Shown here one piece after another: positions 1-55,882 of a stretch of DNA of 64,000 bases. Each line of letters starts with the position of its first letter. The first letter of the stretch is position 1. The stretch comes from Chloropicon primus (taxonomy: Eukaryota). The stretch is taken from contig CP060758.1 in the NCBI GenBank assembly GCA_023205875.1, positions 930,001-994,000 of the forward strand, read 5' to 3'. The notes under the pieces were generated by a model. The model ran no database searches and had not been told where the DNA came from. It worked only from the letters and a program-made list of their open reading frames with translations. The position numbers were made by a program, and so were the translations under genes.

Positions 1-3000
1 GATTGGCCTGGGGAGCCCAGAGCTGCTGCGACAGACGAAAACATGATAGAGGAGTCCAACCTGATGTTGGACGTGAATCTGCTGAGAATATCGAGTGCAC
101 GTTGCTTTGGAGCAAAGACACTTCTGCACTTCTGGATAGACTGCTTCAGCAGTGTTGCATCTGCTAGCACACCTCCTGCGTGAATCATCACATCAATTTG
201 GTGTTGCATCACTTGAACCACTCCTTCGACATCACTTGTCAAGGAAGCATCACACTTCATTAAGGATTGCACCATCAAGATCTGTGACGATCTGGAGCAG
301 ATCTTCTCAGCGTAAGTTGCACTCGCATGACCTGATCTGCCCAGAGCAACAGTGTGGTGGATGGGCAAGCCCGTGTTCCATGCACAAAGCGCAGAACCCA
401 ATGAGCCTGCACCTCCTGTGATCACAGCTGTCTCCTGCATTCCAAAGGAAACATCTCTTCCTGGGCATACAACAACTTTACCTACATGCTTGGCTTGGGA
501 CATTTGACGCAAGGCAGCATGTACGGAACCAAGACTGTGGATCACCTGAGGCAAAGGTCCAATGCTGCCAGAAGCGAGGAAGCGAGCCGTTTGCAACATC
601 ATCTGCTGCATTCTGTGTGGCGGCAAGAAATCCACAGCAAGCAGCTCGTATGTCACATCCTGACGCTCCATCCTCACAGACTGGCGTGACCAAATGTCAC
701 GCTTTCCAATCTCAACCATCCTACCTCCACTGCCCAAAGTGGACAAGGTTGCTCCTACCATACCTGACGACGTCAAGGAGTTCAAAGCAATATCCACACC
801 ACCAGTGTAGGACACCAACTCTGGATACCGGGTATCTCTCGAGTTCACCACATGCTGAAGCCCCAACGACCTCAGCAAAGAGCGCTTGCGGCTACTTCCA
901 GCCGTGGCCAAGGCGTTGGAACCACTGGCTTGGACAACCTGGAGAGCGGCAAGACCGACTCCTCCTGCTGCGGCGTGAATGAGGACATTGTCATTGCGCT
1001 GCATGCAAGACGCGTGGGAGAAGGCAATCTGCACTGTCACAAACACGGTGGGCACTGTGGCTGCGGCACTGAATCCAACATTACTGGGCAAGGGAACGAA
1101 CAAATCAGAAAGTGCATTCACTTCCGTACCAAGACAACCCTCTGCGAGGCCAAACACTGACTGACCAACACAGAAGCCGTCTGAACCCTTGGTCTCCACA
1201 ACCACACCAGAGCAATCGCCTCCTGGCAAACCTGGGTCCCCGGGATACATGTCCAAAATATTGAGAACATCACGGAAATTCAGTCCAATGGCGTGTACCT
1301 GAAGGATCATATCCATGGTGGTTTTGGAGAGGGGCTCTAAGGCTTGCAGGGCCAAGCTACTGAAAGAACCTCGTGGACTTGGAACAAGCTGCATGTGAGC
1401 TTGCTTCAAGTGAGCTCTGCTGGCGATGAGAGTAGGCACCAAGACCATTCCCCCACGGAGAGCTTCTCCTTGAACATCTGATTCTGCACTTCTCATCAGC
1501 AGAGAGTCGACAATCAACGCGTTCGCATTGGAACCAACGTTGATTGTGTCCTCGATAGATACGTCAACACCACCGCAGGTCAAATTCTGGCATTCCTGTG
1601 CTACAGTGCGCATCAGACCCCACAGGTGTCCCTGAGACGTGTTGACGTCGTTGATGGGGCAATCAAGAGCTCCATAAGCACCGAAGGTTTGAAGGTTCAT
1701 AGGCATATGACCCTTGTTGATCAAATCACGCACAACGCTGAGGGCCAACCCCATCGAGCTGATTTGAGAATCAGGTTCTAAAATAAGCATTGAATCGGTA
1801 GCAGAACCCAAAGGACTCGATGACTGAGCAAGACAAGCATTCCACTGCACAAAGTAGGTCGTGGATCTCTTTTCTTCAATGGATGCCTTGGAGACCGAGG
1901 TCCCTGAAGACATGCTCTTGGTCAACAAGTTGTACACAGTGCTTGAAGACAGGCCGTTTGGATCTTGAAGGCTATGCTGGCTCATGCTCTTCTGAGCCGA
2001 ACTAAACACAGTCTTTGCGACAGCATGCAAAACATTGGATTTGGTTCGCTGGTGCACAACAAAAGCGTCAATTCCAGCAGGAACTTGTGTTTGTTGATCC
2101 TCCCCTGATCCGTTATCGACCAAACTTGTAGCTCCAAGCTGGAGGCAACCATCCAGAGCGCTAGGGTGTGTATACATGCCATTCAAAGCACCACTCTCCT
2201 GGCCACCAATGTGAGCATACGCCTCACCCGACAGGTGTCCGTTGTGTCTTATGGCCTTCAGTACTTGGAACTTGGTCATGTAGTTCAAACCAACTTGATG
2301 CATCGCATCGTAAAGAACGACCGATGGAATGGGTACAGCAGATTTTACCCTCAAGTTTTCTTTGCTAAGAGACAATGAAGTCGATGCAATTTCTTCTGAA
2401 GGCTCGTCCACCGATTTGATCCAGCCCAAAGATGCCCTGAAATGAGCAGTACCAAAGCCCGTGCTGTTCCTCTTGGAAAGCGAGGAGATGTCGAACTTTG
2501 CATCGCCGAGCGTATGCACACTAATCTGAACCACAACATCATCCGCCTTGCCCATGGATTGAGGCAGTACAAGAGGGGCAGGAATGGCAGCCTGTTCCAC
2601 AACAATAGATTCAATCGCACCATCTGTCATGAGATGTCCAAGTGCCGAACCCATCTCCAGGTATCCCGCACCAGGGTACAAGGGTTTGTTTTGAATCTGG
2701 TGATCCCACAAGTAAGAATGCAAGGCCCTTGTCAACGTCGTCTCAAGCTTGACAACTCCATCGACATCCACGCGAGCACACTTCGACAACAAGGGGTGCA
2801 CAGGAGGCAAAACCCAGCACCTCTGTGGTCGCCAGCTCAGTACTGCATTCTCCTTGCTGAACACTGAAAACGGGGTACAACCCAAAATGGCATGACTGTT
2901 CGTTCCTTGGAACGCAAACGAGCTTACACCGCCCACAAGGTCGGCATCTGCGACATTTTGAGAGATACCAAAGGACAACTTTGGCAAGTTGTACTTCGAG

Positions 3001-4140
3001 TTCTCGTTTGATCCAATGATTTGGTGCAAGTGAGGGTTCACGCTACTCAAGTGAATTATGGGCGTGCTCGCTGCGTTCATCAAAGCGTCCATGGTGTGGA
3101 TGAGGCCGGCCGCACCTGCGCCTGGTTCAGTGTGACCAATGCTTGATTTACCTGCAGCCAAGTTCAGAGGGTGGTCTGCTACACGATTTCCCATCAACAC
3201 GGCATTCAAAGCACCGACTTCAATAGGATCGCCAAGTGGCGTTCCAGTACCGTGCATTTGCAGCAGACTTACGTCTGCACCGTCTAAAGACTTGTGTTGC
3301 AATGCTGCTCTTACGACCATTTGCTGTGCAGGACCATTAGGAGCAGTCAACGCACTGGATCTTCCGTCTTGATTTACAGCTGTTCCTAGCACGGCAACGG
3401 GCAGGCTGTCGCTGGAATCTGCTGCTCCACTGCTGTCATCAGCACTTTCCAAGCAAAGGGCACCGCAGAATTCTCCCCTCACATAGCCATCTGCTGAAGC
3501 ATCAAGGGTCTTGCACCTTCCGTCTGCACTGAGCATACCTGCCTTATGGAACATCATTGTTGTATCTGGTGTTGACAAGATGTTTACACCTGCAACAATG
3601 CTTGTCGTCTTCGAGAAGTTTCTCTGTGTGTTTGCAATGTGTGTTGTCACAAGGGACGAGGAACAAGCAGTGTCGATGCTCATGGCTGGTCCTCGGAAGT
3701 CAAACATGAAAGATATCCTTCCTGAAGCAACACTCAAAGCTCCTCCTGTTGCACTGTAAGTAGTCACTCCAGATTGATATTTACTGCACAGTCGGCCGTA
3801 ATCAGTGTTTGAGATTCCAACAAACACGCCGACGGGGCAGGTGTTATCAAGCGCCTTGCAACCAAACTTCAACTCAAGAATTATCTGAATCAATGCTCGT
3901 TGTTGCACGTCCATCAGCATGGACTCCCCTAGGCCAAGGCCTGTGCAGGAAATGTCAAAACCAGCGACGTTTTCCATGAAGGACCCATAAGTTGGAGGTC
4001 TCACATTACTGTATTCTTTCGATACTGAATCCAAATCCCACCGAGTAAACGGAACTCTTGAGATAGTATCAGTCCTAAGCCTTGAGGATGTTGTAATACC
4101 AGAGGGCCCCTTTAGCGCAATAGAGGTACATAACGTGTTC
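1..4140 (-). other. PKS module 8: KS-DH-ER-KR (truncated by the window edge)
   Basis: Near-identical to module 7. The KR is cut at FSSVAAALGSPGQ. Confidence 0.88.
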
Positions 4141-7100
4141 TGGACATCACCGAAAGTTTGTGAATCACAGCCCAAAGTCGTATCTGTGACTGTCACCTTC
4201 ACTCCTGACAAGGATCGCATACTGTCACATATGAACGTTTGCATTGAATCCAGCGTAGGATAGTCAAATACCACCGTCCCTGGAAGTTCAATCGCAAAAA
4301 CGCGTTCCAAATCTGTCCGCAACTCTGTGGCACCCAATGAATCCAAGCCAGCAGCCATGAGGGGCTCGTCCGGCTGGACATCATGACCAATAACGCCGCA
4401 GACGACTGACTTAAGATGACTTCGAATCTGGTCTTCATCCATGACAGGTGCTGCTCCTTGTCCAGTCACAAAACTGATATCTGGCACCTGTTGAGCAGCA
4501 CTAACAGCAAATTCAACTGAAGCATGCTCACTCAAGTAATGCGTCTTCTTTGGGATATGGCTCATGAACACAGGCCAATTAAATGGATTGACGACATCTA
4601 TCGGCGTGGGCGTCATGCTTTGCATGCTCTGCATGACACAAGCCAATGCAGACATACCCTCCTCGGCTGTCAAGGAGGACATTCCCGTCCTTTGCAAACG
4701 CAGAGCTGTCTGCTCGTTCTGCGAAGCCATTCCGCCTCCAGACCAGGCACCCCAGCAAATACTAGAAGCAGTAGATCCCATGCTCATTTGACGCACGGCG
4801 AAAACATCTAGGTACGCGTTGGCTGCACCATAGTTGGATTGGCCTGGGGAGCCCAGAGCTGCTGCGACAGACGAAAACATGATAGAGGAGTCCAACCTGA
4901 TGTTGGACGTGAATCTGCTGAGAATATCGAGTGCACGTTGCTTTGGAGCAAAGACACTTCTGCACTTCTGGATAGACTGCTTCAGCAGTGTTGCATCTGC
5001 TAGCACACCTCCTGCGTGAATCATCACATCAATTTGGTGTTGCATCACTTGAACCACTCCTTCGACATCACTTGTCAAGGAAGCATCACACTTCATTAAG
5101 GATTGCACCATCAAGATCTGTGACGATCTGGAGCAGATCTTCTCAGCGTAAGTTGCACTCGCATGACCTGATCTGCCCAGAGCAACAGTGTGGTGGATGG
5201 GCAAGCCCGTGTTCCATGCACAAAGCGCAGAACCCAATGAGCCTGCACCTCCTGTGATCACAGCTGTCTCCTGCATTCCAAAGGAAACATCTCTTCCTGG
5301 GCATACAACAACTTTACCTACATGCTTGGCTTGGGACATTTGACGCAAGGCAGCATGTACGGAACCAAGACTGTGGATCACCTGAGGCAAAGGTCCAATG
5401 CTGCCAGAAGCGAGGAAGCGAGCCGTTTGCAACATCATCTGCTGCATTCTGTGTGGCGGCAAGAAATCCACAGCAAGCAGCTCGTATGTCACATCCTGAC
5501 GCTCCATCCTCACAGACTGGCGTGACCAAATGTCACGCTTTCCAATCTCAACCATCCTACCTCCACTGCCCAAAGTGGACAAGGTTGCTCCTACCATACC
5601 TGACGACGTCAAGGAGTTCAAAGCAATATCCACACCACCAGTGTAGGACACCAACTCTGGATACCGGGTATCTCTCGAGTTCACCACATGCTGAAGCCCC
5701 AACGACCTCAGCAAAGAGCGCTTGCGGCTACTTCCAGCCGTGGCCAAGGCGTTGGAACCACTGGCTTGGACAACCTGGAGAGCGGCAAGACCGACTCCTC
5801 CTGCTGCGGCGTGAATGAGGACATTGTCATTGCGCTGCATGCAAGACGCGTGGGAGAAGGCAATCTGCACTGTCACAAACACGGTGGGCACTGTGGCTGC
5901 GGCACTGAATCCAACATTACTGGGCAAGGAAACGAACAAATCAGAAAGTGCATTCACTTCCGTACCAAGACAACCCTCTGCGAGGCCAAACACTGACTGA
6001 CCAACACAGAAGCCGTCTGAACCCTTGGTCTCCACAACCACACCAGAGCAATCGCCTCCTGGCAAACCTGGGTCCCCGGGATACATGTCCAAAATATTGA
6101 GAACATCACGGAAATTCAGTCCAATGGCGTGTACCTGAAGGATCATATCCATGGTGGTTTTGGAGAGGGGCTCTAAGGCTTGCAGGGCCAAGCTACTGAA
6201 AGAACCTCGTGGACTTGGAACAAGCTGCATGTGAGCTTGCTTCAAGTGAGCTCTGCTGGCGATGAGAGTAGGCACCAAGACCATTCCCCCACGGAGAGCT
6301 TCTCCTTGAACATCTGATTCTGCACTTCTCATCAGCAGAGAGTCGACAATCAACGCGTTCGCATTGGAACCAACGTTGATTGTGTCCTCGATAGATACGT
6401 CAACACCACCGCAGGTCAAATTCTGGCATTCCTGTGCTACAGTGCGCATCAGACCCCACAGGTGTCCCTGAGACGTGTTGACGTCGTTGGTGGGGCAATC
6501 AAGAGCTCCATAAGCACCGAAGGTTTGAAGGTTCATAGGCATATGACCCTTGTTGATCAAATCACGCACAACGCTGAGGGCCAACCCCATCGAGCTGATT
6601 TGAGAATCAGGTTCTAAAATAAGCATTGAATCGGTAGCAGAACCCAAAGGACTCGATGACTGAGCAAGACAAGCATTCCACTGCACAAAGTAGGTCGTGG
6701 ATCTCTTTTCTTCAATGGATGCCTTGGAGACCGAGGTCCCTGAAGACATGCTCTTGGTCAACAAGTTGTACACAGTGCTTGAAGACAGGCCGTTTGGATC
6801 TTGAAGGCTATGCTGGCTCATGCTCTTCTGAGCCGAACTAAACACAGTCTTTGCGACAGCATGCAAAACATTGGATTTGGTTCGCTGGTGCACAACAAAA
6901 GCGTCAATTCCAGCAGGAACTTGTGTTTGTTGATCCTCCCCTGATCCGTTATCGACCAAACTTGTAGCTCCAAGCTGGAGGCAACCATCCAGAGCGCTAG
7001 GGTGTGTATACATGCCATTCAAAGCACCACTCTCCTGGCCACCAATGTGAGCATACGCCTCACCCGACAGGTGTCCGTTGTGTCTTATGGCCTTCAGTAC

Positions 7101-10100
7101 TTGGAACTTGGTCATGTAGTTCAAACCAACTTGATGCATCGCATCGTAAAGAACGACCGATGGAATGGGTACAGCAGATTTTACCCTCAAGTTTTCTTTG
7201 CTAAGAGACAATGAAGTCGATGCAATTTCTTCTGAAGGCTCGTCCACCGATTTGATCCAGCCCAAAGATGCCCTGAAATGAGCAGTACCAAAGCCCGTGC
7301 TGTTCCTCTTGGAAAGCGAGGAGATGTCGAACTTTGCATCGCCGAGCGTATGCACACTAATCTGAACCACAACATCATCCGCCTTGCCCATGGATTGAGG
7401 CAGTACAAGAGGGGCAGGAATGGCAGCCTGTTCCACAACAATAGATTCAATCGCACCATCTGTCATGAGATGTCCAAGTGCCGAACCCATCTCCAGGTAT
7501 CCCGCACCAGGGTACAAGGGTTTGTTTTGAATCTGGTGATCCCACAAGTAAGAATGCAAGGCCCTTGTCAACGTCGTCTCAAGCTTGACAACTCCATCGA
7601 CATCCACGCGAGCACACTTCGACAACAAGGGGTGCACAGGAGGCAAAACCCAGCACCTCTGTGGTCGCCAGCTCAGTACTGCATTCTCCTTGCTGAACAC
7701 TGAAAACGGGGTACAACCCAAAATGGCATGACTGTTCGTTCCTTGGAACGCAAACGAGCTTACACCGCCCACAAGGTCGGCATCTGCGACATTTTGAGAG
7801 ATACCAAAGGACAACTTTGGCAAGTTGTACTTCGAGTTCTCGTTTGATCCAATGATTTGGTGCAAGTGAGGGTTCACGCTACTCAAGTGAATTATGGGCG
7901 TGCTCGCTGCGTTCATCAAAGCGTCCATGGTGTGGATGAGGCCGGCCGCACCTGCGCCTGGTTCAGTGTGACCAATGCTTGATTTACCTGCAGCCAAGTT
8001 CAGAGGGTGGTCTGCTACACGATTTCCCATCAACACGGCATTCAAAGCACCGACTTCAATAGGATCGCCAAGTGGCGTTCCAGTACCGTGCATTTGCAGC
8101 AGACTTACGTCTGCACCGTCTAAAGACTTGTGTTGCAATGCTGCTCTTACGACCATTTGCTGTGCAGGACCATTAGGAGCAGTCAACGCACTGGATCTTC
8201 CGTCTTGATTTACAGCTGTTCCTAGCACGGCAACGGGCAGGCTGTCGCTGGAATCTGCTGCTCCACTGCTGTCATCAGCACTTTCCAAGCAAAGGGCACC
8301 GCAGAATTCTCCCCTCACATAGCCATCTGCTGAAGCATCAAGGGTCTTGCACCTTCCGTCTGCACTGAGCATACCTGCCTTATGGAACATCATTGTTGTA
8401 TCTGGTGTTGACAAGATGTTTACACCTGCAACAATGCTTGTCGTCTTCGAGAAGTTTCTCTGTGTGTTTGCAATGTGTGTTGTCACAAGGGACGAGGAAC
8501 AAGCAGTGTCGATGCTCATGGCTGGTCCTCGGAAGTCAAACATGAAAGATATCCTTCCTGAAGCAACACTCAAAGCTCCTCCTGTTGCACTGTAAGTAGT
8601 CACTCCAGATTGATATTTACTGCACAGTCGGCCGTAATCAGTGTTTGAGATTCCAACAAACACGCCGACGGGGCAGGTGTTATCAAGCGCCTTGCAACCA
8701 AACTTCAACTCAAGAATTATCTGAATCAATGCTCGTTGTTGCACGTCCATCAGCATGGACTCCCCTAGGCCAAGGCCTGTGCAGGAAATGTCAAAACCAG
8801 CGACGTTTTCCATGAAGGACCCATAAGTTGGAGGTCTCACATTACTGTATTCTTTCGATACTGAATCCAAATCCCACCGAGTAAACGGAACTCTTGAGAT
8901 AGTATCAGTCCTAAGCCTTGAGGATGTTGTAATACCAGAGGGCCCCTTTAGCGCAATAGAGGTACATAACGTGTTCTGGACATCACCGAAAGTTTGTGAA
9001 TCACAGCCCAAAGTCGTATCTGTGACTGTCACCTTCACTCCTGACAAGGATCGCATACTGTCACATATGAACGTTTGCATTGAATCCAGCGTAGGATAGT
9101 CAAATACCACCGTCCCTGGAAGTTCAATCGCAAAAACGCGTTCCAAATCTGTCCGCAACTCTGTGGCACCCAATGAATCCAAGCCAGCAGCCATGAGGGG
9201 CTCGTCCGGCTGGACATCATGACCAATAACGCCGCAGACGACTGACTTAAGATGACTTCGAATCTGGTCTTCATCCATGACAGGTGCTGCTCCTTGTCCA
9301 GTCACAAAACTGATATCTGGCACCTGTTGAGCAGCACTAACAGCAAATTCAACTGAAGCATGCTCACTCAAGTAATGCGTCTTCTTTGGGATATGGCTCA
9401 TGAACACAGGCCAATTAAATGGATTGACGACATCTATCGGCGTGGGCGTCATGCTTTGCATGCTCTGCATGACACAAGCCAATGCAGACATACCCTCCTC
9501 GGCTGTCAAGGAGGACATTCCCGTCCTTTGCAAACGCAGAGCTGTCTGCTCGTTCTGCGAAGCCATTCCGCCTCCAGACCAGGCACCCCAGCAAATACTA
9601 GAAGCAGTAGATCCCATGCTCATTTGACGCACGGCGAAAACATCTAGGTACGCGTTGGCTGCACCATAGTTGGATTGGCCTGGGGAGCCCAGAGCTGCTG
9701 CGACAGACGAAAACATGATAGAGGAGTCCAACCTGATGTTGGACGTGAATCTGCTGAGAATATCGAGTGCACGTTGCTTTGGAGCAAAGACACTTCTGCA
9801 CTTCTGGATAGACTGCTTCAGCAGTGTTGCATCTGCTAGCACACCTCCTGCGTGAATCATCACATCAATTTGGTGTTGCATCACTTGAACCACTCCTTCG
9901 ACATCACTTGTCAAGGAAGCATCACACTTCATTAAGGATTGCACCATCAAGATCTGTGACGATCTGGAGCAGATCTTCTCAGCGTAAGTTGCACTCGCAT
10001 GACCTGATCTGCCCAGAGCAACAGTGTGGTGGATGGGCAAGCCCGTGTTCCATGCACAAAGCGCAGAACCCAATGAGCCTGCACCTCCTGTGATCACAGC

Positions 10101-13100
10101 TGTCTCCTGCATTCCAAAGGAAACATCTCTTCCTGGGCATACAACAACTTTACCTACATGCTTGGCTTGGGACATTTGACGCAAGGCAGCATGTACGGAA
10201 CCAAGACTGTGGATCACCTGAGGCAAAGGTCCAATGCTGCCAGAAGCGAGGAAGCGAGCCGTTTGCAACATCATCTGCTGCATTCTGTGTGGCGGCAAGA
10301 AATCCACAGCAAGCAGCTCGTATGTCACATCCTGACGCTCCATCCTCACAGACTGGCGTGACCAAATGTCACGCTTTCCAATCTCAACCATCCTACCTCC
10401 ACTGCCCAAAGTGGACAAGGTTGCTCCTACCATACCTGACGACGTCAAGGAGTTCAAAGCAATATCCACACCACCAGTGTAGGACACCAACTCTGGATAC
10501 CGGGTATCTCTCGAGTTCACCACATGCTGAAGCCCCAACGACCTCAGCAAAGAGCGCTTGCGGCTACTTCCAGCCGTGGCCAAGGCGTTGGAACCACTGG
10601 CTTGGACAACCTGAAGAGCGGCAAGACCGACTCCTCCTGCTGCGGCGTGAATGAGGACATTGTCATTGCGCTGCATGCAAGACGCGTGGGAGAAGGCAAT
10701 CTGCACTGTCACAAACACGGTGGGCACTGTGGCTGCGGCACTGAATCCAACATTACTGGGCAAGGAAACGAACAAATCAGAAAGTGCATTCACTTCCGTA
10801 CCAAGACAACCCTCTGCGAGGCCAAACACTGACTGACCAACACAGAAGCCGTCTGAACCCTTGGTCTCCACAACCACACCAGAGCAATCGCCTCCTGGCA
10901 AACCTGGGTCCCCGGGATACATGTCCAAAATATTGAGAACATCACGGAAATTCAGTCCAATGGCGTGTACCTGAAGGATCATATCCATGGTGGTTTTGGA
11001 GAGGGGCTCTAAGGCTTGCAGGGCCAAGCTACTGAAAGAACCTCGTGGACTTGGAACAAGCTGCATGTGAGCTTGCTTCAAGTGAGCTCTGCTGGCGATG
11101 AGAGTAGGCACCAAGACCATTCCCCCACGGAGAGCTTCTCCTTGAACATCTGATTCTGCACTTCTCATCAGCAGAGAGTCGACAATCAACGCGTTCGCAT
11201 TGGAACCAACGTTGATTGTGTCCTCGATAGATACGTCAACACCACCGCAGGTCAAATTCTGGCATTCCTGTGCTACAGTGCGCATCAGACCCCACAGGTG
11301 TCCCTGAGACGTGTTGACGTCGTTGGTGGGGCAATCAAGAGCTCCATAAGCACCGAAGGTTTGAAGGTTCATAGGCATATGACCCTTGTTGATCAAATCA
11401 CGCACAACGCTGAGGGCCAACCCCATCGAGCTGATTTGAGAATCAGGTTCTAAAATAAGCATTGAATCGGTAGCAGAACCCAAAGGACTCGATGACTGAG
11501 CAAGACAAGCATTCCACTGCACAAAGTAGGTCGTGGATCTCTTTTCTTCAATGGATGCCTTGGAGACCGAGGTCCCTGAAGACATGCTCTTGGTCAACAA
11601 GTTGTACACAGTGCTTGAAGACAGGCCGTTTGGATCTTGAAGGCTATGCTGGCTCATGCTCTTCTGAGCCGAACTAAACACAGTCTTTGCGACAGCATGC
11701 AAAACATTGGATTTGGTTCGCTGGTGCACAACAAAAGCGTCAATTCCAGCAGGAACTTGTGTTTGTTGATCCTCCCCTGATCCGTTATCGACCAAACTTG
11801 TAGCTCCAAGCTGGAGGCAACCATCCAGAGCGCTAGGGTGTGTATACATGCCATTCAAAGCACCACTCTCCTGGCCACCAATGTGAGCATACGCCTCACC
11901 CGACAGGTGTCCGTTGTGTCTTATGGCCTTCAGTACTTGGAACTTGGTCATGTAGTTCAAACCAACTTGATGCATCGCATCGTAAAGAACGACCGATGGA
12001 ATGGGTACAGCAGATTTTACCCTCAAGTTTTCTTTGCTAAGAGACAATGAAGTCGATGCAATTTCTTCTGAAGGCTCGTCCACCGATTTGATCCAGCCCA
12101 AAGATGCCCTGAAATGAGCAGTACCAAAGCCCGTGCTGTTCCTCTTGGAAAGCGAGGAGATGTCGAACTTTGCATCGCCGAGCGTATGCACACTAATCTG
12201 AACCACAACATCATCCGCCTTGCCCATGGATTGAGGCAGTACAAGAGGGGCAGGAATGGCAGCCTGTTCCACAACAATAGATTCAATCGCACCATCTGTC
12301 ATGAGATGTCCAAGTGCCGAACCCATCTCCAGGTATCCCGCACCAGGGTACAAGGGTTTGTTTTGAATCTGGTGATCCCACAAGTAAGAATGCAAGGCCC
12401 TTGTCAACGTCGTCTCAAGCTTGACAACTCCATCGACATCCACGCGAGCACACTTCGACAACAAGGGGTGCACAGGAGGCAAAACCCAGCACCTCTGTGG
12501 TCGCCAGCTCAGTACTGCATTCTCCTTGCTGAACACTGAAAACGGGGTACAACCCAAAATGGCATGACTGTTCGTTCCTTGGAACGCAAACGAGCTTACA
12601 CCGCCCACAAGGTCGGCATCTGCGACATTTTGAGAGATACCAAAGGACAACTTTGGCAAGTTGTACTTCGAGTTCTCGTTTGATCCAATGATTTGGTGCA
12701 AGTGAGGGTTCACGCTACTCAAGTGAATTATGGGCGTGCTCGCTGCGTTCATCAAAGCGTCCATGGTGTGGATGAGGCCGGCCGCACCTGCGCCTGGTTC
12801 AGTGTGACCAATGCTTGATTTACCTGCAGCCAAGTTCAGAGGGTGGTCTGCTACACGATTTCCCATCAACACGGCATTCAAAGCACCGACTTCAATAGGA
12901 TCGCCAAGTGGCGTTCCAGTACCGTGCATTTGCAGCAGACTTACGTCTGCACCGTCTAAAGACTTGTGTTGCAATGCTGCTCTTACGACCATTTGCTGTG
13001 CAGGACCATTAGGAGCAGTCAACGCACTGGATCTTCCGTCTTGATTTACAGCTGTTCCTAGCACGGCAACGGGCAGGCTGTCTCTGGAATCTGCTGCTCC

Positions 13101-19100: not shown

Positions 19101-22100
19101 TTGGCCAGGTGAGCCCAAGAGAGATGCAACAGAAGAAAAGTAAAATATCTGCTGTAAAGGATATTCACCCATGCCTTCATGAAGACGATGAGCTGCATCT
19201 ACCTTTGATCCGTACACCAACCTCTGAGAACGGACGGTTTGGTTGGACAAAGAGGCATCAGACAAAACACCACCAGAGTGAATCAAGCCTGTGAAGTCTT
19301 CTCCGACCCTCTTGAGACCTGAAAGATCTTCCAAGCTCGATGCATCACACTTCAGCATGGTGACAAGACCTCTGATTCCAAGACCAAACGCAGACCTGTC
19401 GTGTAGTTGTGCGTTTCTACCTGAACGGCCCAACAGTGTGGCACTTGCACATCCAGATTTGCACAACCAACTTCCAACAAGTCTGCCTAGGGTTCCGAGA
19501 CCGCCTACGATGACGAATTTTTCAGAATTGAAGGTACTGTTGAAGTGCTGGAAATGCACTTTCGTTGGCTTTAGATGGGGATGGAAGGAAATTCCGTGAG
19601 AATTGCCACATTCCTGATGAATGATATCGGAGTGATGTGATTCTACGGTCAGTAAAACGGCATTGTGTTTTCCTCCAACTTCTTGCTTTGAAAAACTCGT
19701 TGACTTGAAATCAGTGTGCCTGATTTCCTGTGCTACAGTGCGCATCAGACCCCACAGGTGTCCCTGAGACGTGTTGACGTCGTTGATGGGGCAATCAAGA
19801 GCTCCATAAGCACCGAAGGTCTTCAGATGCACGCATTGGATTTCCTGTGCTTCTTGCTTCTGACATTCCTGGAAGTATTGGAGCTCATGAAAGATGTTGT
19901 CCTGACATGTAACTTCCATTCTGGGTTCCAAAGCGAGCATCTCAACTTGAGGCAATGACGCGGTCCACGACATAGAGTATATTGTCTTTGTGACCGCAAG
20001 GCTTGTGCGGTCAACCTTCTTCTGGTCAATGGAGCGTGCCGACAATCCAGCAAGAGACATCAGAGGGCCTGATCCAGACGTCTTAAAAGTGTAGTCCAGA
20101 GTGAAGGTATGGTTCACGGCACCGACGGAGGGCCTTTGAGTTGCTTCTACGGCGGTATCTGCAGTGAAGGCATCACCATTCAAGAACAGCGCTTCAAACC
20201 CTGTTGGCACGCGTGATGACATTGAAACCTCCTCCAAGGATTGCACACATTGGCCCAATTGTAGACCGCAGTCAAGCATCTCAACTGAAATGTTTGAATC
20301 AGTAGCGTAAAGCCCAGTTGTAATTGTCCCAACACTGTTAGGACCGATAGACTGCGGCTGCAAAGATTTATGCTTTTGATTTTCTTTGCTACTCTCGACT
20401 TCATGTACACGAGCGTGAGTAGCTTGCAAAACAACAATTTCATTGCTCAAGGAAGCTCTCTTCATCACTACCGAATCTTCTTCTAATGCAATTGTGATTG
20501 CCGTAGAATCACGCGGGTTGCGTTGATCGTGGGGGCATACCACAGAAGCATTACTAATTCCAACAGCTTCAGAGAATACCAACTTGGTTGCGTAGTACAT
20601 GGGAACAGCGTACACTCCCAAACTTGCGGTACTATGTGCAAAGCAACAACGAACCTCAAATTGTATCGGATGAGAGCTAGCCAACTTGAAGTCATTGAAT
20701 GGGTAAATGCTTTTGATGTGCCCGATGTTCGATATCCATTTGAAAGACAAATGGCGAATACTTGCGGTCAGGGTCACACAATGCCCACTAACACGTTCAG
20801 ACAAAACTGAATGGCCATTAGTTCCCTGAAACGCAAAAGAGCTTACACCAACAGAAATGCCATGGGTATGCTGGACATTTGAATACTCTCTTGGCATGTG
20901 CAACGCAAAAGACGCTGCATGTTGTCTGTCCCCAGAAGAAACCAGATTCGCAATATAGGGGTTAATCGATGTCAGGTGCAGAACAGGCCTAGAAGTATGC
21001 TTTGCTGCAACAGTAATTGCATTCAACAAACCGTTCATGCCAGCAGCTGGTTCTGCATGTCCAACCCAAGACTTTGATGAGGATAAAGCAAGAGGAACAA
21101 AACTCGCCCTACTTTCAAAAACCTTCTTCAAAGCTCCCAATTCGATAGGATCGCCTAAGCCCGTACCAGTTCCATGCATTTCTATGCCACAGATATCCTC
21201 GGCAGATAGAGGACCATCTGCAAGACTACGACGGACAACCTCTTGCTGTGAAGGACCATTGGGCGCAGTCAGCGTACTTGACCTGCCATCCTGATTAACA
21301 GAGGAACCAGCAATGACAATATGCCCCTCTTCGGAACTGTTGCTTCCATCTACGAGAGGTTCTAACAGGAGCGTACCACATGATTCACCGCGCACGTAAC
21401 CATCTGCTCTCGCATCAAGAGTCTTGCATCGTCCATCCCGAGCAAGCATACCAGATGATTCAAACATTAATGAAGTAGACTTCAAAATTGTAGTGTTCAC
21501 TCCTGAAACTGCTGACGATGATCCGACAGGTACCCTTATAACATTCTGCTTTGCAATACTAAGAGCAACCAAACTTGAAGAACAAGCTGTATCGATGGAA
21601 ACCGCAGGACCCTTCAAACCGAAAAAGTAAGAAACTCTTCCAGCTGCACAGCTCATCGCAATTCCAGTCGCAAGGAAAGGTGGAATCTTCGTGACCGATT
21701 TCAGCAACAGTGAATTGTAGTCCGAGCTCGAAATACCAACGAACACTCCAACATCACAGGATGCAAAGCCATTCCGATTTAAAACTATGGCATTCGAACC
21801 CAGCAGCAAGCAATGCTGTGGATCCATGTAGGTTGCCTCGGCACTACCAATCTGGAATGCTTCTCTGTCGAAATATTCGATATCTTCCATGAAAGAACCA
21901 AAGCGCGTTGTCAGCAAGCTACTATCAACAGTGTAAAGATCCTCAGCATCCCAACGGTTGTAAGGCACAACACGAATGCCATCTTTCCCTATCGAAGAAG
22001 TCTGCAATGCATGCTTTGGCTCAGAAAAATTGTAGTTGGAAATGACACACGCAATATCAGATTGCGATCTAGGCACTAGTTCTTGATCTATCTTTGCCTC

Positions 22101-25100
22101 TTCTCTCATGCCTCCCAGCATTGTGATAACAAACTCAGATAGAGAATGTACCGTTGGATAATCAAATATCAATGTGCCTGGTAGTTGCAGACCCAGCACA
22201 CCCTCAAGGGTGTTCCTGAATTCGACCGCACCAAGAGAATCCAAACCTGCATCCATCAATGGCTCGTGCAGACCAACATTCTTTCCAAGGACACTCTGTG
22301 TCACATCGAAAACGCTTTTCTCGACATCGTCTGGTCTCAAAGTTTTCATGTTGTTCCTAGACAAGTCACTTGTGTTGTGAACGCTTGAAGATGTCTGCAC
22401 TTGGACTGACACCTCAGATTCGAATTCCGCAAAGAATGGTGAACGCACAGAAGGATTGGCAAGGAACTTGGACCAATCAAATGGGTTCACACACTGGATA
22501 GGAGAAAGCGATTCCATGCTCTGAGTGCATGTCGCAAACGTACTTGCAAGTGTCGACAAGGCTTGCAAGCCTATCGCAGGACTCACGGCATTCATTCCAG
22601 TACGCTCAAGCTTCTGAAGCACCTTTGCTGATGCCATTCCACCACCAGACCACGCACCCCATTGAATGCTCGATGCTCCAACACCGGTATGTTGAAGACT
22701 CACAGATAAGCTGTCAAGGTATGCATTTGCTGCACTGTATCCGCCTTGGCCAGGTGAGCCCAAGAGAGATGCAACAGAAGAAAAGTAAAATATCTGCTGT
22801 AAAGGATATTCACCCATGCCTTCATGAAGACGATGAGCTGCATCTACCTTTGATCCGTACACCAACCTCTGAGAACGGACGGTTTGGTTGGATAAAGAGG
22901 CATCAGACAAAACACCACCAGAGTGAATCAAGCCTGTGAAGTCTTCTCCGACCCTCTTGAGACCTGAAAGATCTTCCAAGCTCGATGCATCACACTTCAG
23001 CATGGTGACAAGACCTCTGATTCCAAGACCAAACGCAGACCTGTCGTGTAGTTGTGCGTTTCTACCTGAACGGCCCAACAGTGTGGCACTTGCACATCCA
23101 GATTTGCACAACCAACTTCCAACAAGTCTCCCTAAGGAGCCCATACCTCCTGTAATCATCACCTTCGCATCACTAACGCTGTTCTCAAAAGTCAAGCTGT
23201 TGGTAAGCACAACTTTACCTACATGCTTGGCTTGGGACATTTGACGCAAGGCAGCATGTACGGAACCAAGACTGTGGATCACCTGAGGCAAAGGTCCAAT
23301 GCTGCCAGAAGCGAGGAAGCGAGCCGTTTGCAACATCATCTGCTGCATTCTGTGTGGCGGCAAGAAATCCACAGCAAGCAGCTCGTATGTCACATCCTGA
23401 CGCTCCATCCTCACAGACTGGCGTGACCAAATGTCACGCTTTCCAATCTCAACCATCCTACCTCCACTGCCCAAAGTGGACAAGGTTGCTCCTACCATAC
23501 CTGACGACGTCAAGGAGTTCAAAGCAATATCCACACCACCAGTGTAGGACACCAACTCTGGATACCGGGTATCTCTCGAGTTCACCACATGCTGAAGCCC
23601 CAACGACCTCAGCAAAGAGCGCTTGCGGCTACTTCCAGCCGTGGCCAAGGCGTTGGAACCACTGGCTTGGACAACCTGAAGAGCGGCAAGACCGACTCCT
23701 CCTGCTGCGGCGTGAATGAGGACATTGTCATTGCGCTGCATGCAAGACGCGTGGGAGAAGGCAATCTGCACTGTCACAAACACGGTGGGCACTGTGGCTG
23801 CGGCACTGAATCCAACATTACTGGGCAAGGGAACGAACAAATCAGAAAGTGCATTCACTTCCGTACCAAGACAACCCTCTGCGAGGCCAAACACTGACTG
23901 ACCAACACAGAAGCCGTCTGAACCCTTGGTCTCCACAACCACACCAGAGCAATCGCCTCCTGGCAAACCTGGGTCCCCGGGATACATGTCCAAAATATTG
24001 AGAACATCACGGAAATTCAGTCCAATGGCGTGTACCTGAAGGATCATATCCATGGTGGTTTTGGAGAGGGGCTCTAAGGCTTGCAGGGCCAAGCTACTGA
24101 AAGAACCTCGTGGACTTGGAACAAGCTGCATGTGAGCTTGCTTCAAGTGAGCTCTGCTGGCGATGAGAGTAGGCACCAAGACCATTCCCCCACGGAGAGC
24201 TTCTCCTTGAACATCTGATTCTGCACTTCTCATCAGCAGAGAGTCGACAATCAACGCATTCGCATTGGAACCAACGTTGATTGTGTCCTCGATAGATACG
24301 TCAACACCACCGCAGGTCAAATTCTGGCATTCCTGTGCTACAGTGCGCATCAGACCCCACAGGTGTCCCTGAGACGTGTTGACGTCGTTGGTGGGGCAAT
24401 CAAGAGCTCCATAAGCACCGAAGGTTTGAAGGTTCATAGGCATATGACCCTTGTTGATCAAATCACGCACAACGCTGAGGGCCAACCCCATCGAGCTGAT
24501 TTGAGAATCAGGTTCTAAAATAAGCATTGAATCGGTAGCAGAACCCAAAGGACTCGATGACTGAGCAAGACAAGCATTCCACTGCACAAAGTAGGTCGTG
24601 GATCTCTTTTCTTCAATGGATGCCTTGGAGACCGAGGTCCCTGAAGACATGCTCTTGGTCAACAAGTTGTACACAGTGCTTGAAGACAGGCCGTTTGGAT
24701 CTTGAAGGCTATGCTGGCTCATGCTCTTCTGAGCCGAACTAAACACAGTCTTTGCGACAGCATGCAAAACATTGGATTTGGTTCGCTGGTGCACAACAAA
24801 AGCGTCAATTCCAGCAGGAACTTGTGTTTGTTGATCCTCCCCTGATCCGTTATCGACCAAACTTGTAGCTCCAAGCTGGAGGCAACCATCCAGAGCGCTA
24901 GGGTGTGTATACATGCCATTCAAAGCACCACTCTCCTGGCCACCAATGTGAGCATACGCCTCACCCGACAGGTGTCCGTTGTGTCTTATGGCCTTCAGTA
25001 CTTGGAACTTGGTCATGTAGTTCAAACCAACTTGATGCATCGCATCGTAAAGAACGACCGATGGAATGGGTACAGCAGATTTTGCCCTCAAGTTTTCTTT

Positions 25101-28100
25101 GCTAAGAGACAATGAAGTCGATGCAATTTCTTCTGAAGGCTCGTCCACCGATTTGATCCAGCCCAAAGATGCCCTGAAATGAGCAGTACCAAAGCCCGTG
25201 CTGTTCCTCTTGGAAAGCGAGGAGATGTCGAACTTTGCATCGCCGAGCGTATGCACACTAATCTGAACCACAACATCATCCGCCTTGCCCATGGATTGAG
25301 GCAGTACAAGAGGGGCAGGAATGGCAGCCTGTTCCACAACAATAGATGCAATCGCACCATCTGTCATGAGATGTCCAAGTGCCGAACCCATCTCCAGGTA
25401 TCCCGCACCAGGGTACAAGGGTTTGTTTTGAATCTGGTGATCCCACAAGTAAGAATGCAAGGCCCTTGTCAACGTCGTCTCAAGCTTGACAACTCCATCG
25501 ACATCCACGCGAGCACACTTCGACAACAAGGGGTGCACAGGAGGCAAAACCCAGCACCTCTGTGGTCGCCAGCTCAGTACTGCATTCTCCTTGTTGAACA
25601 CTGAAAACGGGGTACAACCCAAAATGGCATGACTGTTCGTTCCTTGGAACGCAAACGAGCTTACACCGCCCACAAGGTCGGCATCTGCGACATTTTGAGA
25701 GATACCAAAGGACAACTTTGGCAAGTTGTACTTCGAGTTCTCGTTTGATCCAATGATTTGGTGCAAGTGAGGGTTCACGCTACTCAAGTGAATTATGGGC
25801 GTGCTCGCTGCGTTCATCAAAGCGTCCATGGTGTGGATGAGGCCGGCCGCACCTGCGCCTGGTTCAGTGTGACCAATGCTTGATTTACCTGCAGCCAAGT
25901 TCAGAGGGTGGTCTGCTACACGATTTCCCATCAACACGGCATTCAAAGCACCGACTTCAATAGGATCGCCAAGTGGCGTTCCAGTACCGTGCATTTGCAG
26001 CAGACTTACGTCTGCACCGTCTAAAGACTTGTGTTGCAATGCTGCTCTTACGACCATTTGCTGTGCAGGACCATTAGGAGCAGTCAACGCACTGGATCTT
26101 CCGTCTTGATTTACAGCTGTTCCTAGCACGGCAACGGGCAGGCTGTCGCTGGAATCTGCTGCTCCACTGCTGTCATCAGCACTTTCCAGGCAAAGGGCAC
26201 CGCAGAATTCTCCCCTCACATAGCCATCTGCTGAAGCATCAAGGGTCTTGCACCTTCCGTCTGCACTGAGCATACCTGCCTTATGGAACATCATTGTTGT
26301 ATCTGGTGTTTGAGTGAGATTGATCCCAAAGATACTTGCTCTTTTCATGCTGATGTTGGTGCTGAATGTAGAGGTTGCAATAGACAATGCTACAAGGGAC
26401 GAGGAACAAGCAGTGTCGATTGACATGGAAGGACCTGTCAATGCAAACATGAAAGATATCCTTCCTGAAGCAACACTAAGTGCGGATCCTGACGCGGAAA
26501 ATGGAGTGATTCGATTGCTGTATTTGTCCACCAATCGAGAATGATCAATACTGGATATTCCCACAAAGATACCTGTGTCCATATTGGTTCTTTCGTGCAG
26601 TAGTGAATTTGCACACTGAAGAAGTAACCTTTGCTGGGAGTCTATGAAAATAGACTCATTCTTCGATAGAGCAAACGCAGAATGATCGAACTCCTGAGAT
26701 CCACTGAGGAAACTACCAAAAGCTGGTAAGCCTTCAAATGTCGAAGATTCACACCATCTGTAGTACGGAACTCGAGAAAGGGCATCCTTTATGCAACCTG
26801 GACCTGAAGCAGGTACGTGATCCATTTTGTGATGAGCACAAATAGCAAGATTCAGATCTCGTGCCAAAGGTACTGACGTTTTGAGAGTTTCATCAACAGC
26901 CACAACTTCCTCAGTATTTACGAGAGATTGTATGTGTTCAACCAGAGAGGAAGGAGTAGGATAATCAAACGCAACAGTACCAGGGAGCTCTATCCCCAAG
27001 GTCTGCTCGAGTTGATTCCTCAGCTCGACTGACGAGAGCGAATCAAGTCCATTTTCCATAAATAGACCATCCTTCTCAATACTTCGACCCAAAATATTTT
27101 GAAGCGTCACACCTACAACCCTTTTAAGTTGTTCAATGTCAAAGTGACAGAGTGTGGTCGAGGGAACAGTGTCTCCCTTGATTGCATCTTCCAAAGTCTC
27201 TTTTCTGAAGTCATAGACACCTTCAAAGAAACACTCATTGTCATCATTCATATACGAGCCAAGGAATTTGTGCCAGTCAACATCTAGTGCAGCTATCGAA
27301 GAAGGTCTATGCTCAACACTTCTATTTGAATTCATGATGTACGTATTGAGAAGAACTCCTTTCATTGGATCTAGTCCAGAAAGGCCTATTTTCTCAAGCC
27401 TCCTCAAATTATCCTGATTTCTTGCTGCCATTCCCACCTCTGCCCAAGCACCCCATTGGATTGACGATGACTTGAGTCCACGTGAAGACAAATCTGATAA
27501 ATATGCATCCATGTACGCATTAGAAGCAGTATAAGAGCACTGGCCAGGAGATCCAAGCACCACAGAAAATGAAGAGAAAGCCACCTCAACGTCGACCGGA
27601 AGTCTTTCACAAGCATCATGGACATTTTGTATTCCAGAGGCCTTCGGGGCAAACACGCTCCGTGCCCTGTTCAAATCTGTTTTCAGAATTGAGCTGTCAA
27701 CCAAGATTCCACTTGCATGGATAACTGTCAATGGTGAAGAAGCAAGATGAATCTCCTCGAACGATGACACCTCGTCTTTGCTCGTAACATCAACTTTGGA
27801 AAGCATCAATGTGTTTCTGCCATAGCACAGATTCGTCAATTTCGAATCTTTACTTGCGCTTGAAGCTTTTCCTGAGCGCCCCGTAAGAATCAATTCGTTA
27901 AAGCACTCACTTTGCATGCACGATGAAACAAAGAGTCCCAAAGAGCCAAGTCCTCCAAACATCGCCAGGGACTTGCAAGAATCCAATACAGAGTGCGTCA
28001 CGGAATCCACTACAACTTTGCCGATTTGCTTTGATGAAGCTAATCCTTTCAGGGCTCTGACAACAGAATCCATACTGAAAGACGTAAAGGGAAGTGGCAC

Positions 28101-31100
28101 ACATTCACCCAAACCCAAAAACGCAGCAGCTCGTTCCAGATATCTCGAATTGATATGCTGCGGCAAGAAATCCACAGCAAGCAGCTCGTATGTCACATCC
28201 TGACGCTCCATCCTCACAGACTGGCGTGACCAAATGTCACGCTTTCCAATCTCAACCATCCTACCTCCACTGCCCAAAGTGGACAAGGTTGCTCCTACCA
28301 TACCTGACGACGTCAAGGAGTTCAAAGCAATATCCACACCACCAGTGTAGGACACCAACTCTGGATACCGGGTATCTCTCGAGTTCACCACATGCTGAAG
28401 CCCCAACGACCTCAGCAAAGAGCGCTTGCGGCTACTTCCAGCCGTGGCCAAGGCGTTGGAACCACTGGCTTGGACAACCTGAAGAGCGGCAAGACCGACT
28501 CCTCCTGCTGCGGCGTGAATGAGGACATTGTCATTGCGCTGCATGCAAGACGCGTGGGAGAAGGCAATCTGCACTGTCACAAACACGGTGGGCACTGTGG
28601 CTGCGGCACTGAATCCAACATTACTGGGCAAAACGGACAGTAAATTCTTTGAGGTCACTGCATGAGAAGCTAACGAACCAATTGCAAAGCCGAATACAGA
28701 TGTTCCTGGTGCAAAAGCACTGCAATCACCTGAATTGAACACTGTCCCTGAACAATCTGCGCCAGGCATTCCAGGCTCTCCGGGATACATGTCCAAAATG
28801 TTGAGAACATCACGGAAATTTAATCCCACGGACGCAATTCTTATCTCAACTTCCCCGCAACTTAAGGGTGTGGTTGATGGCGAATACTGCTTCAAAGCTA
28901 AGCTCGAGAAGGATCCTCTTGGCTGGGGAACAATCTGGAAGGCAGAGACCTTCATAGGATTGACTCTGTGAGAGTCTCTTAACCTGGTCATCTGTGAATG
29001 GTATTCTGTCGTTCCGTCCGTAGTCAGTATGCCTTGGCCCCAGTTGGAATAACCTCCAGGGGAGACAAACGTATCAGATTCTGGAATTGTTTGTGACACG
29101 TGGTAAATCTTGGAGCTGTAATTGCATTCCTGTGTGAATGACTTGACTGCACCCCATATAGCATGCTGTAAGCATCTTGAATCAAGACTCCCATTTTCTG
29201 CCACAATTTTGTTTGCATCAAAGACGGACTTCAATTTCAGATGATATCGATCAATCTTCAAAGTACTTTCCAGATCTTGCATCAAGCTGAATGACGTCCA
29301 CAGTCCTGGAACTCTGCTGTTTCTTTGAGGATTATCCAGATCGTGAACAACAGTAAAGTTATTCCTGTCACCGGTCTCAAAGGCGATAGAAGTCATTTCT
29401 TGCTTGCTCTCTACCAGTGTGTTCTGCACACATAACCACGAGACATGGTACATCGAATCAGTCTTCTCCACCTTCATTGTTGCCATTTGAGTTTTGGCTT
29501 TGACGGCATATCCAAGGATGGACTCGATACTCGCAACATTATCACCCGAGGCTGTAGTCAGATTCAAATCGTTTGAAGACCCTGCAACAATTTCGGGTGC
29601 CAATGATGCAGTAGCGTAAGTGCTACAGACATCACTGCATCTTGAACAAACGTAGACTTCTATGGACACTGGGATTTCCGAAGATGGCTCTTCACCCTTG
29701 TCGACCTTGGAGATGACATCTCTTCCTGCTATAACGTGCAATGCAGCGTCTAAGACAGCAGGATCGACCAAAAAGTCATTGCTATTGACGTTTGAGCCAA
29801 TCTTGCCCACTGCTGTTGAGTGGTCTCCAACCCAAAGAGTTTCCAAGAGTTTGAACGCATCTTTGTACTGCAAACCAAGGTTCGACAGCTTGTTGTACAG
29901 ATCAACAACATTGCAAGGCCTGTACACGGCTTGCCGCATGAGTTTCTCGCTTGCCAAGTCATTCTCCAAGGGCTCGATGACACTGTATGAGCCTGCAAAA
30001 TGTTCTTCCCTGTCCGATCTCGAACAAAACTCTCCAGATACGTTGTTTAGACAAAAAGTCAAAGGAGCAGATTCCATGTTCAACACCAGCGCAGACATGA
30101 AAGCAATCTTCGTTGCTACAACGTTTTGTGAAGTTCTTCTATCGGTGAGCGCAAAACATTCAGAAGCGCATTCCAGAAAGGCGGCTCCGGGCAAAATATG
30201 CATCCCTTGGACAATATGATCATGCAGAAAGCCCAACGACGGTGCTCCCAAGTTGATTTCAATCATGAGAGTAGCATCACCACCATGCTTCAATGATGTT
30301 GTGAAGGGTCCAACTGATTCTCCTATGCAATAGAAAGCCATTGTAAAGAGAGAGCTGGGATTGGTTCCTGTGCTGATGTTGTTTGGACCTTCTGCCATGC
30401 TCACAACCACATTTGCATTTGTTCCCTGAAATGCAAAGGAGCTCACAGACCCATGGGAGACGTGTGCAGCCAGTGACCTGTTCAGGACACGCTCTTCCCT
30501 TGGCACAGAGCTTTGCTTGAGTGCAGGCACGACGTACGGATTGACGGATTTGAGATGACCAAACGAAGCTGACCTGTGCATGGCTGCCTCACAAATGAGC
30601 TGAAACAAACCTGAAACACCTGCTGCAGCTTCAGTGTGGCCAATCTTTGACTTCACGGAACTCAGGTTCAAAGGATCATCAGTTTTCGTCTGGCGGTATA
30701 CTGTTGTGAGTGCATTTACTTCAATAGGATCTCCTAGCGGAGTTCCAGTTCCGTGCATCTCAGTAAAGAGTATCTCGCTTGGTAATATTCTCCCTTTTGA
30801 CACAGCCTCAGAGAGAACTTGCTGTTGAGCGACTCCACTAGGAGCAGTGAGAGAGCTTGACCGCCCATCTTGATTCACAACCGCAGATACTATATGGACT
30901 CCAGAAAATACGGATTCTTCGCCCTCGTCCAAATTGCGTCTAGACAGCAGCACGAGACCACAGGCATCACCCCTGACATAACCGTCTGCTGATTCATCGA
31001 GAGTTTTACACCTTCCATCTCGGGCAAGCATACCAGACTGGTGGAACATCAGCGTGACCTCAGGGGCCAGAATTATATTCACACCCCCTGAGATGGCAAA

Positions 31101-43222: not shown

Positions 43223-43299
<77 letters not shown>

Positions 43300-49642: not shown

Positions 49643-50044
49643 CGCAGTCCCCGTCACAGCAGAGGGTCCCGAGAGGCTCGCCGCCACGCCACGGTGGTCT
49701 CACGGTGAGACTCTCAACCCCCTCCCTCTCGCCCCGATATCGCTCTTCGCTTCCTCACTCGAAGGCAAGACCGCTCGATCACGACAAGAGCGCGTGCGCG
49801 ATCGCTCGATCGCTCGATCCGATCGTATCGTATCGTATCGTTCCTCGACGACGCTCACTTCCTCGCCCCCCCGCCCGATCGCGATCGATCGATCAAACAC
49901 GACCCCGGTAACGCTCAGCCGCGGCCCTCGTGATCGGCGATCGCGATGATTTGAGTTTTTGAGTTTTTTTTGTCTGCAAAGGGACGTAGGTGGTGGTCGT
50001 GGTTGGTTGGGTGCGCGCGCGCCCGGCGAGGACGAGGACGCACG

Positions 50045-51988: not shown

Positions 51989-52036
51989 ACAACAGCTCTT
52001 TAATATATATATATACACACCCACACCTCTTAATAC

Positions 52037-53557: not shown

Positions 53558-53725
53558 TCTCCTCTCCCCTCCTCGTCTCGGACTGCGAAAACCGTGGCGG
53601 TCTTCTTCCTCTCGTGCGCGACCCGAACGCGAAACCAGCTTCCCTCTGAAACCCAAAAACCTTTGGCTCTCTGCCTGCCAAGGGGACGAGGACGAGGACG
53701 CGGAGGAAACCAGGTCCTTGGAAGT

Positions 53726-55813: not shown

Positions 55814-55839
55814 AGGGGACTAAGGTTTTAGGGGGAAAA

Positions 55840-55846
55840 TACATAC

Positions 55847-55882
<36 letters not shown>
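55840..55882. repeat. (TACA)n/(TA)n microsatellite between convergent genes
   Basis: acatacatac...atatatatat. Confidence 0.85.

Follow-up and report, generated by a model that had tools for sequence, protein, structure and literature searches.

Near-identical DNA patches with changing partners among the modules of a giant polyketide synthase gene of Chloropicon primus

A giant polyketide synthase gene with a patchwork of modules

The 64,000-nucleotide stretch of Chloropicon primus DNA analyzed here (the window) carries part of a giant polyketide synthase (PKS) gene whose modules share near-identical segments of DNA, with partners that change from one part of a module to the next. No single duplication tree accounts for these blocks, and recent intragenic recombination between modules very probably explains them. 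The gene is one uninterrupted frame along 41.7 kb:

3..41678, minus strand: giant single-frame PKS/nonribosomal peptide synthetase-like gene without an acyltransferase (AT) domain, 13,892 codons, extending beyond the window edge

The probable start codon is an ATG at 41663, and the 5′ part is 99% identical to QDZ21473.1, a C. primus record named polyketide synthase. Pfam and motif scans give the order ligase-ACP-ACP-KS-DH-KR-ACP-C-ligase-ACP-ACP, followed by modules 2 to 8 (M2 to M8, with M1 for module 1). The single frame contains eight ketosynthase (KS) domains, all of which keep the Cys-His-His motifs (8/8), while the His motif of the dehydratase (DH) is kept in seven of eight, module 4 lacking both this motif and an enoylreductase (ER). 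No AT family was found in three Pfam scans covering the in-window frame, the 3′ end of the gene lying beyond the window. A giant polypeptide with multiple KS domains, no integrated AT within the window and a chlorophyte host probably place the gene among the chlorophyte multimodular trans-AT type I PKSs. The published annotation cuts it into A3770_05p39910 (3314 aa, predicted to be spliced and to stop early) and A3770_05p39900; in the window sequence, one open frame runs through both.

Shared blocks join modules in conflicting combinations

Shared blocks make up 24,220 of the first 28,631 bases. They are 472-8390 nt long and 99.6-100% identical, and the module DNA outside them is about 25-65% alike. 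A preliminary description of this DNA had listed blocks at offsets of 3636 (17194-17801), 3645 (18169-19484), 3657 (16068-16600), 8262 (13881-16163), 22737 (472-3573) and 27540 (620-1091), all multiples of three, and all six are present; the partner change that it reported for module 3, which goes with M6-M8 for the C-terminal half of KS (KS-C), DH and ER and with M4-M5 for the ketoreductase and carrier protein (KR-ACP), is likewise borne out. The offset is divisible by three in all 33 listed off-diagonal blocks. This regularity had been offered as evidence of recombination, a use that we reject, because homologous copies within one open frame must be in frame and multiples of three are thus uninformative.

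Sorted by partner, KS-C and DH of M3, M6, M7 and M8 form one group and those of M4 and M5 another; KR-ACP unites M3, M4 and M5 and, separately, M6-M8; and the ER core is common to M2, M3 and M5-M8. There are three types of KS-C plus that of M1, and three of KR-ACP plus that of M1; most N-terminal halves of KS are unique and are 30-55% alike. The features that define the patchwork are as follows:

28160..28631, minus strand: 472-nt patch at the ER core of module 2, without differences from M3, M5 and M6 and one base off M7 and M8
24426..26310, minus strand: block P of module 3 (C-terminal KS half and DH), common to M6, M7 and M8
23209..24425, minus strand: block X of module 3 (pseudo-KR and ER), common to M5-M8, its first 96 nt also to M4
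21814..23208, minus strand: block Q/R (module 3 KR-ACP and start of the next KS), Q shared with M4 and M5, R with the M4-M5 joint
26889..31643, minus strand: module 2 (KS-DH-ER-KR-ACP), single-copy contigs at 26448-28189 and 28602-32430, ER core multi-copy
18423..22064, minus strand: module 4 (KS, DH without His motif, no ER, KR, ACP), M5-like patches alternating with diverged stretches
13818..18422, minus strand: module 5 (KS-DH-ER-KR-ACP), joint 14940->10144 found in 4/4 runs
13227..13880, minus strand: single-copy N-terminal half of the module-6 KS, anchoring the tandem array, unhomogenized, with a GC content at third codon positions (GC3) of 0.38
1..13226, minus strand: modules 6-8 in tandem, with a repeat period of 4836 nt and 4 differences in 8390 nt

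Module-2 sequence stands in register on both sides of its ER-core patch, so that the core reads as a conversion tract or a double crossover. Module 4 matches M5 at 99.6-100% in three patches (21814-22142, 20830-21437 and 19725-20257). Module 5 combines KS/DH patches shared with M4, an ER shared with M3 and M6-M8, and a KR-ACP shared with M3-M4.

The identity resides in the DNA. Between the ER cores of M2 and M3, four-fold-degenerate third positions match at 88/88 sites inside the block, against 11/28, 20/60 and 32/89 outside it; across three blocks the matches are 88/88, 102/102 and 96/96, against 31-54% in seven outside segments. Since silent sites are identical inside the blocks and saturated outside, the identity is recent and at the DNA level rather than a product of protein conservation. 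Of 14 comparisons between aligned segments outside the blocks, 11 have longest exact runs of 6-14 nt; the remaining three, with runs of 20, 30 and 34 nt, hold short patches.

Trees built on the DNA of M1-M6, with M7 and M8 omitted as near-copies of M6, give conflicting histories. The KS-C tree pairs M3 with M6 and M4 with M5, and a forced M3+M4+M5 group is rejected (approximately unbiased test, p 0.0105); the KR-ACP tree joins M3, M4 and M5 (97/95), and a forced M3+M6 is narrowly not rejected (p 0.051). These trees replaced earlier protein-tree clade tests, which were uninformative owing to identical rows. The conflict between KS-C and KR-ACP partner sets excludes serial whole-module duplication on one tree, in agreement with the preliminary description. 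GENECONV-style permutation points the same way: 8 of 15 pairs have matching runs that span 164-1574 polymorphic sites, where permutation reaches at most 16-123, and the M4-M6 and M4-M7 runs of 31 face 11-13. The five pairs with M2 give 8-11 against 10-11, the test being blind to the M2 core because that core has no polymorphic columns among the six modules. With DNA identity above 80% between paralogous modules over regions that outrun conserved motifs, silent sites included, and with histories incompatible with one tree, the gene fits concerted evolution or gene conversion between PKS modules.

In nine of ten comparisons, block copies show 0-2.3 differences per kb; the tenth block, a short one, shows 3.75 per kb, and one of its two differences is a listed allele. 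The tandem copies differ by 0.48 per kb. In 13.9 kb of single-copy sequence there are 8 heterozygous sites (0.57 per kb), and the species is described as mainly diploid with 0.54 variants per kb (PMC6731263). Because copies differ about as much as homologues do, the exchange is recent and falls in the same age range as the homologue split.

Junctions in short-read contigs and the length of the published assembly

All nine junctions that lie, themselves or through a homologous position, within the stretches compared to public short-read contigs are seen there as contig ends, joints or loose ends, among them the block P junctions at 26291/26310 and 24425; the patchwork is thus no assembly artifact. 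Contig depth, a rough guide, climbs with the number of copies in the window. With single-copy sequence set at 1, blocks present twice reach 2.1-2.3 in DNA run X1, those present three times 3.5 and 4.0, those present four times 4.6 and those present five times 6.0; the corresponding values in DNA run X2 are 1.8, 2.9, 3.2, 3.5 and 3.6 (the last for the five-copy block). The single-copy stretch at 13227..13880 forms one contig (13197-13910) with the lowest depth.

The published assembly agrees in length. All 16 published heterozygous sites of the locus that fall within the window, from 3959 to 40236, sit at one constant offset with a listed allele in the window, and the published assembly is therefore equally long over that interval. 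The published large-indel table has no row in the PKS gene among its 12 chromosome-5 rows. Over 34127-39896, five of the six differences between an X1 contig and the window are listed alleles; such differences thus reflect allelic variation, not error.

Both the gene and its patchwork probably extend beyond position 1. The depth of the ER-core contig suggests two to three copies beyond the six in the window, and contigs branch at 9159, 12570-12602, 13978-14012 and 30408-30443 into sequence outside the compared stretches. A copy-number difference in the organism of run X4, where repeat blocks reach 7-10 times single-copy depth, was considered and dropped because the rise in X5 is steeper and the depth of published RNA climbs from 3.05 in the 5′ gene model to 36.04 in the 3′ model; 3′ bias explains the depth. 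None of the runs listed as containing this DNA is catalogued as RNA. Metagenome run X6, with short pieces at depth 2-4, was excluded from inference. A plasmid search gave no match, and a metagenome scan with module 2 found no relative.

Alternative explanations and the four-gamete sites

The preliminary description went further and read single-base variants among the ER copies as exchange caught in progress. The ER and KS-C/DH blocks contain ten variable sites, three of which are informative:

942, minus strand: silent CTC/CTT, G in M8 and M7, A in M6, M5, M3 and M2
1094, minus strand: Pro/Ser, G in M8, M5 and M3, A in M7 and M6, both alleles in contigs
1654, minus strand: Ile/Thr, A in M8, M5 and M4, G in M7, M6 and M3

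The bases at 942/1094 are as first read (G/G in M8, G/A in M7, A/A in M6, A/G in M5 and M3). Site 1654 does show a pattern different from the other two, as had been claimed, but it conflicts with 942 only and is compatible with 1094, with which it forms three gametes; the incompatible pairs are thus 942 with 1094 and 942 with 1654. The four-gamete pattern is therefore present, but as an argument for ongoing exchange it comprises three sites and one event and hangs on the base at 942. One further short conversion among M5-M8, for example an M5-to-M8 tract covering 1094-1654, would produce it. As proof of ongoing exchange, the pattern is plausible but weakly supported.

The strongest competing explanation accepts the mosaic and attributes the four gametes to a consensus that mixed homologue or tandem-copy alleles in M6-M8. 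We give it somewhat less than an even chance, and slightly favor the phase as read. Omitting M7 or M8, changing the base of either at 942 or swapping that base between two copies removes both incompatible pairs, and random scrambling of alleles among the five copies yields a four-gamete pair in 90% of trials. M7 sits 6-7 kb from unique anchors, and the 0.54 variants per kb between homologues (PMC6731263) nearly matches the 0.48 per kb by which tandem copies differ. At the homologue of site 3411, contigs from X3, X4 and X5 unexpectedly carry T, which the window has in only one of four copies (M6); allele placement in M6-M8 may thus differ from that in the window. Against a consensus artifact, public contigs contain each of the two alleles at 942, 1094 and 3411, which also disposes of polishing errors at these three sites; G at 942 is seen in only two runs, both presumed RNA, and the A allele of 1654 is absent among the contig alleles listed. 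Unique sequence is no more than about 3 kb away from M6 and M8, and even after re-phasing either M8 or M6 still matches M5 at 1094 and 1654, so that an exchange is needed in any case. The contigs are collapsed paths from a diploid species, hence uninformative on phase, and the published single-nucleotide table has no row at 942, 1094, 1654 or 3411, repeats being masked there. At two heterozygous sites (16469 and 40236) one allele equals the base of a paralogue, which fits a new mutation and a conversion on one homologue alike.

It is improbable, in our estimate, that gene conversion played no part and that rounds of tandem duplication and deletion through unequal crossing-over, with breakpoints inside modules, built the whole pattern. 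M6-M8 do form a plain tandem triplet, and the offsets among M3, M4 and M5 are nearly equal (3636-3657), as tandem duplication gives. Against crossing-over alone, the M2 ER core and the M4/M5 alternation each demand two in-register junctions per patch, and exact patches of 30-41 nt within conserved motifs suit small tracts. Even this account is one of recombination and likewise rejects a single module tree.

Misassembly of collapsed repeats as the source of the whole patchwork is largely refuted and very unlikely: long near-identical repeats do assemble poorly, and the annotation does split the gene, but the junctions occur in short-read contigs, including those of other samples (X4, X5), depth tracks copy number, the published assembly has the same length over 36 kb and no stop interrupts the frame along its 41.7 kb. 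Strong protein conservation or recurrent mutation with no transfer of DNA has practically no standing, since silent sites refute the former for the blocks and the rough probability of a same-base repeat hit at one ER-block site is 0.004-0.022, even though many block edges adjoin conserved motifs.

Several points nevertheless weigh against recent recombination by conversion as the account of the patchwork. The contig comparison covered 9 of 13 main junctions, four M4/M5 junctions (16600, 17194, 17801 and 18169) lying outside it; X1 depth ratios run 10-30% above nominal, while the X2 five-copy block reaches only 3.6; and X1 and X2 are possibly the source of the window itself. Block edges lean towards conserved motifs (mean percentile 0.65 over the ten residues inside the block, P 0.027), but this window was picked after a first, symmetric one had given P 0.052, and three edges share one motif. 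A search for a sister-species orthologue that would allow a cross-species test of concerted evolution found none. Sequence by itself does not separate conversion from successive unequal crossovers, and the transfer would be non-reciprocal only by inference.

Proposed mechanism and the part that escapes

Within the favored account of intragenic recombination, gene conversion would overwrite parts of long-diverged modules with the sequence of their neighbors, and the three tandem modules would stem from unequal crossing-over. When a module is broken, a paralogous one on that chromosome or its homologue may serve as the repair template, with strand exchange resolving in or beside conserved motifs. 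The motifs next to junctions are GML(S/A)xDGRCKT (three junctions, mid-KS), FQGTN, HVGKVV, the KR glycine motif and FDYPT. Short tracts would yield patches flanked on both sides, such as the M2 ER core, and a misaligned crossover likely produced the 4836-nt triplet M6-M8.

Such like-for-like replacement would keep the fully reducing modules uniform. The preliminary description had spoken of domain shuffling; taken as a route to new function, this is not supported: every exchange replaces a domain by one of the same kind, and the overall result is homogenization. ER motifs are the same in 6/6 copies and every KR has the LxD motif, which we take to be that of B-type domains, so the chemistry is not visibly changed. 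As far as the sequence can indicate, this is concerted evolution rather than visible new chemistry.

The N-terminal half of KS would mostly escape. It is the least homogenized part (13227-13880, 17802-18168, 21438-21813 and 26311-26888) and is single-copy in M2-M6, barring the first 329 nt common to M4 and M5. The M5 KS, putative acceptor of the hydroxyl-bearing chain from M4, deviates most ahead of the active Cys. Selection for substrate fit is a possible reason for these unhomogenized halves.

In a bolder version, which is doubtful, vegetative diploid cells would still undergo conversion, the junctions would return to a small set of motifs, and selection would shield the N-terminal KS half, which meets the incoming carrier and chain. 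Were it true, these motifs would form a natural splice map of assembly lines in eukaryotes, in contrast to the bacterial rule of junctions behind the KS, and homologues could carry different module haplotypes.

Base composition varies along the gene. GC3 is 0.7-0.8 in the ligase and module 1, drops to 0.3-0.6 in modules 2-8, and is 0.74-0.88 in four neighboring genes. It tends to be slightly higher in multi-copy blocks than in their single-copy counterparts; GC-biased conversion was considered and set aside, the trend being weak.

Comparison with known systems

Inter-module recombination is already well known in bacteria, which makes the surprise modest, and the C. primus gene is a clean eukaryotic example. 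In assembly-line PKSs, inter-module conversion, including GRINS, is reported for 93% of 203 known clusters (Nivina et al. 2021, PMC8256042). The C. primus gene resembles those systems in the domain-sized stretches of very high DNA identity between paralogous modules, interpreted there as conversion. Unlike them (mostly bacterial and cis-AT), it is eukaryotic and AT-less, with 99.6-100% identity and without the GRINS-defining skew. Assignment to GRINS was rejected: under the definition used (duplicated region >500 bp with >80% identity, mean absolute GC and TA skews both >0.15), eight of the ten blocks examined exceed 500 bp at the required identity and 0/10 combine all features. The ER block has skews of 0.152/0.146, and the ER core has 0.18/0.155 yet is only 472 bp long. 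GRINS are described as rarer in trans-AT systems (PMC10394414).

The mycolactone genes mlsA1/A2/B (PMC2569948) offer a second parallel, with near-identical domains whose identity ends at domain or module borders and with single-base variants from which ongoing replacement was inferred. At that locus like domains are all >98.5% identical and strain comparison reveals chemical change. The C. primus gene, by contrast, is homogenized in patches only, so that its like domains do not all exceed 98.5%, and no functional swap is seen.

Near-identical modules of chlorophyte trans-AT type I PKSs have been described, from proteins, as duplications (Shelest et al. 2015, PMC4661987), and the words 'conversion' and 'recombination' have 0 occurrences in the main text of that paper. 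Against this duplication account, the sub-module patches of C. primus with their conflicting partners require recombination. Junction 17194 lies at the C-terminal KS motif that corresponds to NAHVILEE, as do bacterial trans-AT recombination sites (PMC7930024, PMC11260071). Those sites act between clusters and lie behind the KS, whereas exchange in C. primus is within one gene and three junctions are mid-KS. A literature search, with most subscription journals outside its coverage, returned no report of conversion within green-algal PKS genes.

Exact internal repeats of at least 30 aa occur in 9 of the 36 best protein hits examined, some of the others deriving from short contigs prone to break at repeats. 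Several repeat offsets, and with them patchwork of this kind, are present in another C. primus PKS (P0007) and in a pedinophyte protein (P0003), one edge of which falls at the GML(S/A)xDGRCKT motif of KS. Comparison of P0007 with P0357, the same PKS in two assemblies, is collinear, with 4 differences in 3693 aa and no rearrangement.

The locus thus provides a base-pair-level case that giant algal PKS genes evolve through inter-module recombination and not only through module duplication, the usual chlorophyte account. Its surviving junctions mark spots at which chimeras seem to be tolerated in a eukaryotic AT-less assembly line and so give engineering a lead; the published heterozygous sites make the rate of exchange measurable with long reads. 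It also carries a warning that module trees and automated gene models mislead here.

Ligases, putative product and neighboring genes

A second duplicated element stands upstream of the modules with shared blocks:

32401..34156, minus strand: internal acyl-CoA-ligase-like domain behind the C domain, 1756 nt identical to the N-terminal ligase at 39907-41662

The copy is 100% identical and begins at the second codon of the N-terminal ligase. The pair (32401-34156/39907-41662) forms a single collapsed contig at about twice single-copy depth. A GC3 of 0.79 amid GC-poorer surroundings suggests that the internal ligase was copied from the 5′ end. Both ligases look like fatty-acyl-CoA ligases, below all cut-offs, rather than amino-acid adenylation domains, and the C-ligase unit may join two acyl chains. 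The domain order would predict a long chain, saturated for the most part, in which module 4 leaves a hydroxyl. Chlamydomonas PKS1, a giant chlorophyte type I PKS, is cited for zygote wall formation (PMC11808170, PMC12633428); a wall-lipid role for the C. primus gene by this likeness is only an analogy.

The neighbors of the PKS gene in the window are green-lineage. Between 43090 and 47730, two frames with Ig-like (Big_12) and CARDB matches probably belong to one spliced gene for a cell-surface protein, with a CT microsatellite near 43230-43300 and a proline-rich repeat at 43400-43640. From 49970 to 62381 the genes are ordinary eukaryotic ones, encoding a type II PI4-kinase with ubiquitin-like domains, COG6, a zinc alcohol dehydrogenase, a kinesin and an inositol monophosphatase.

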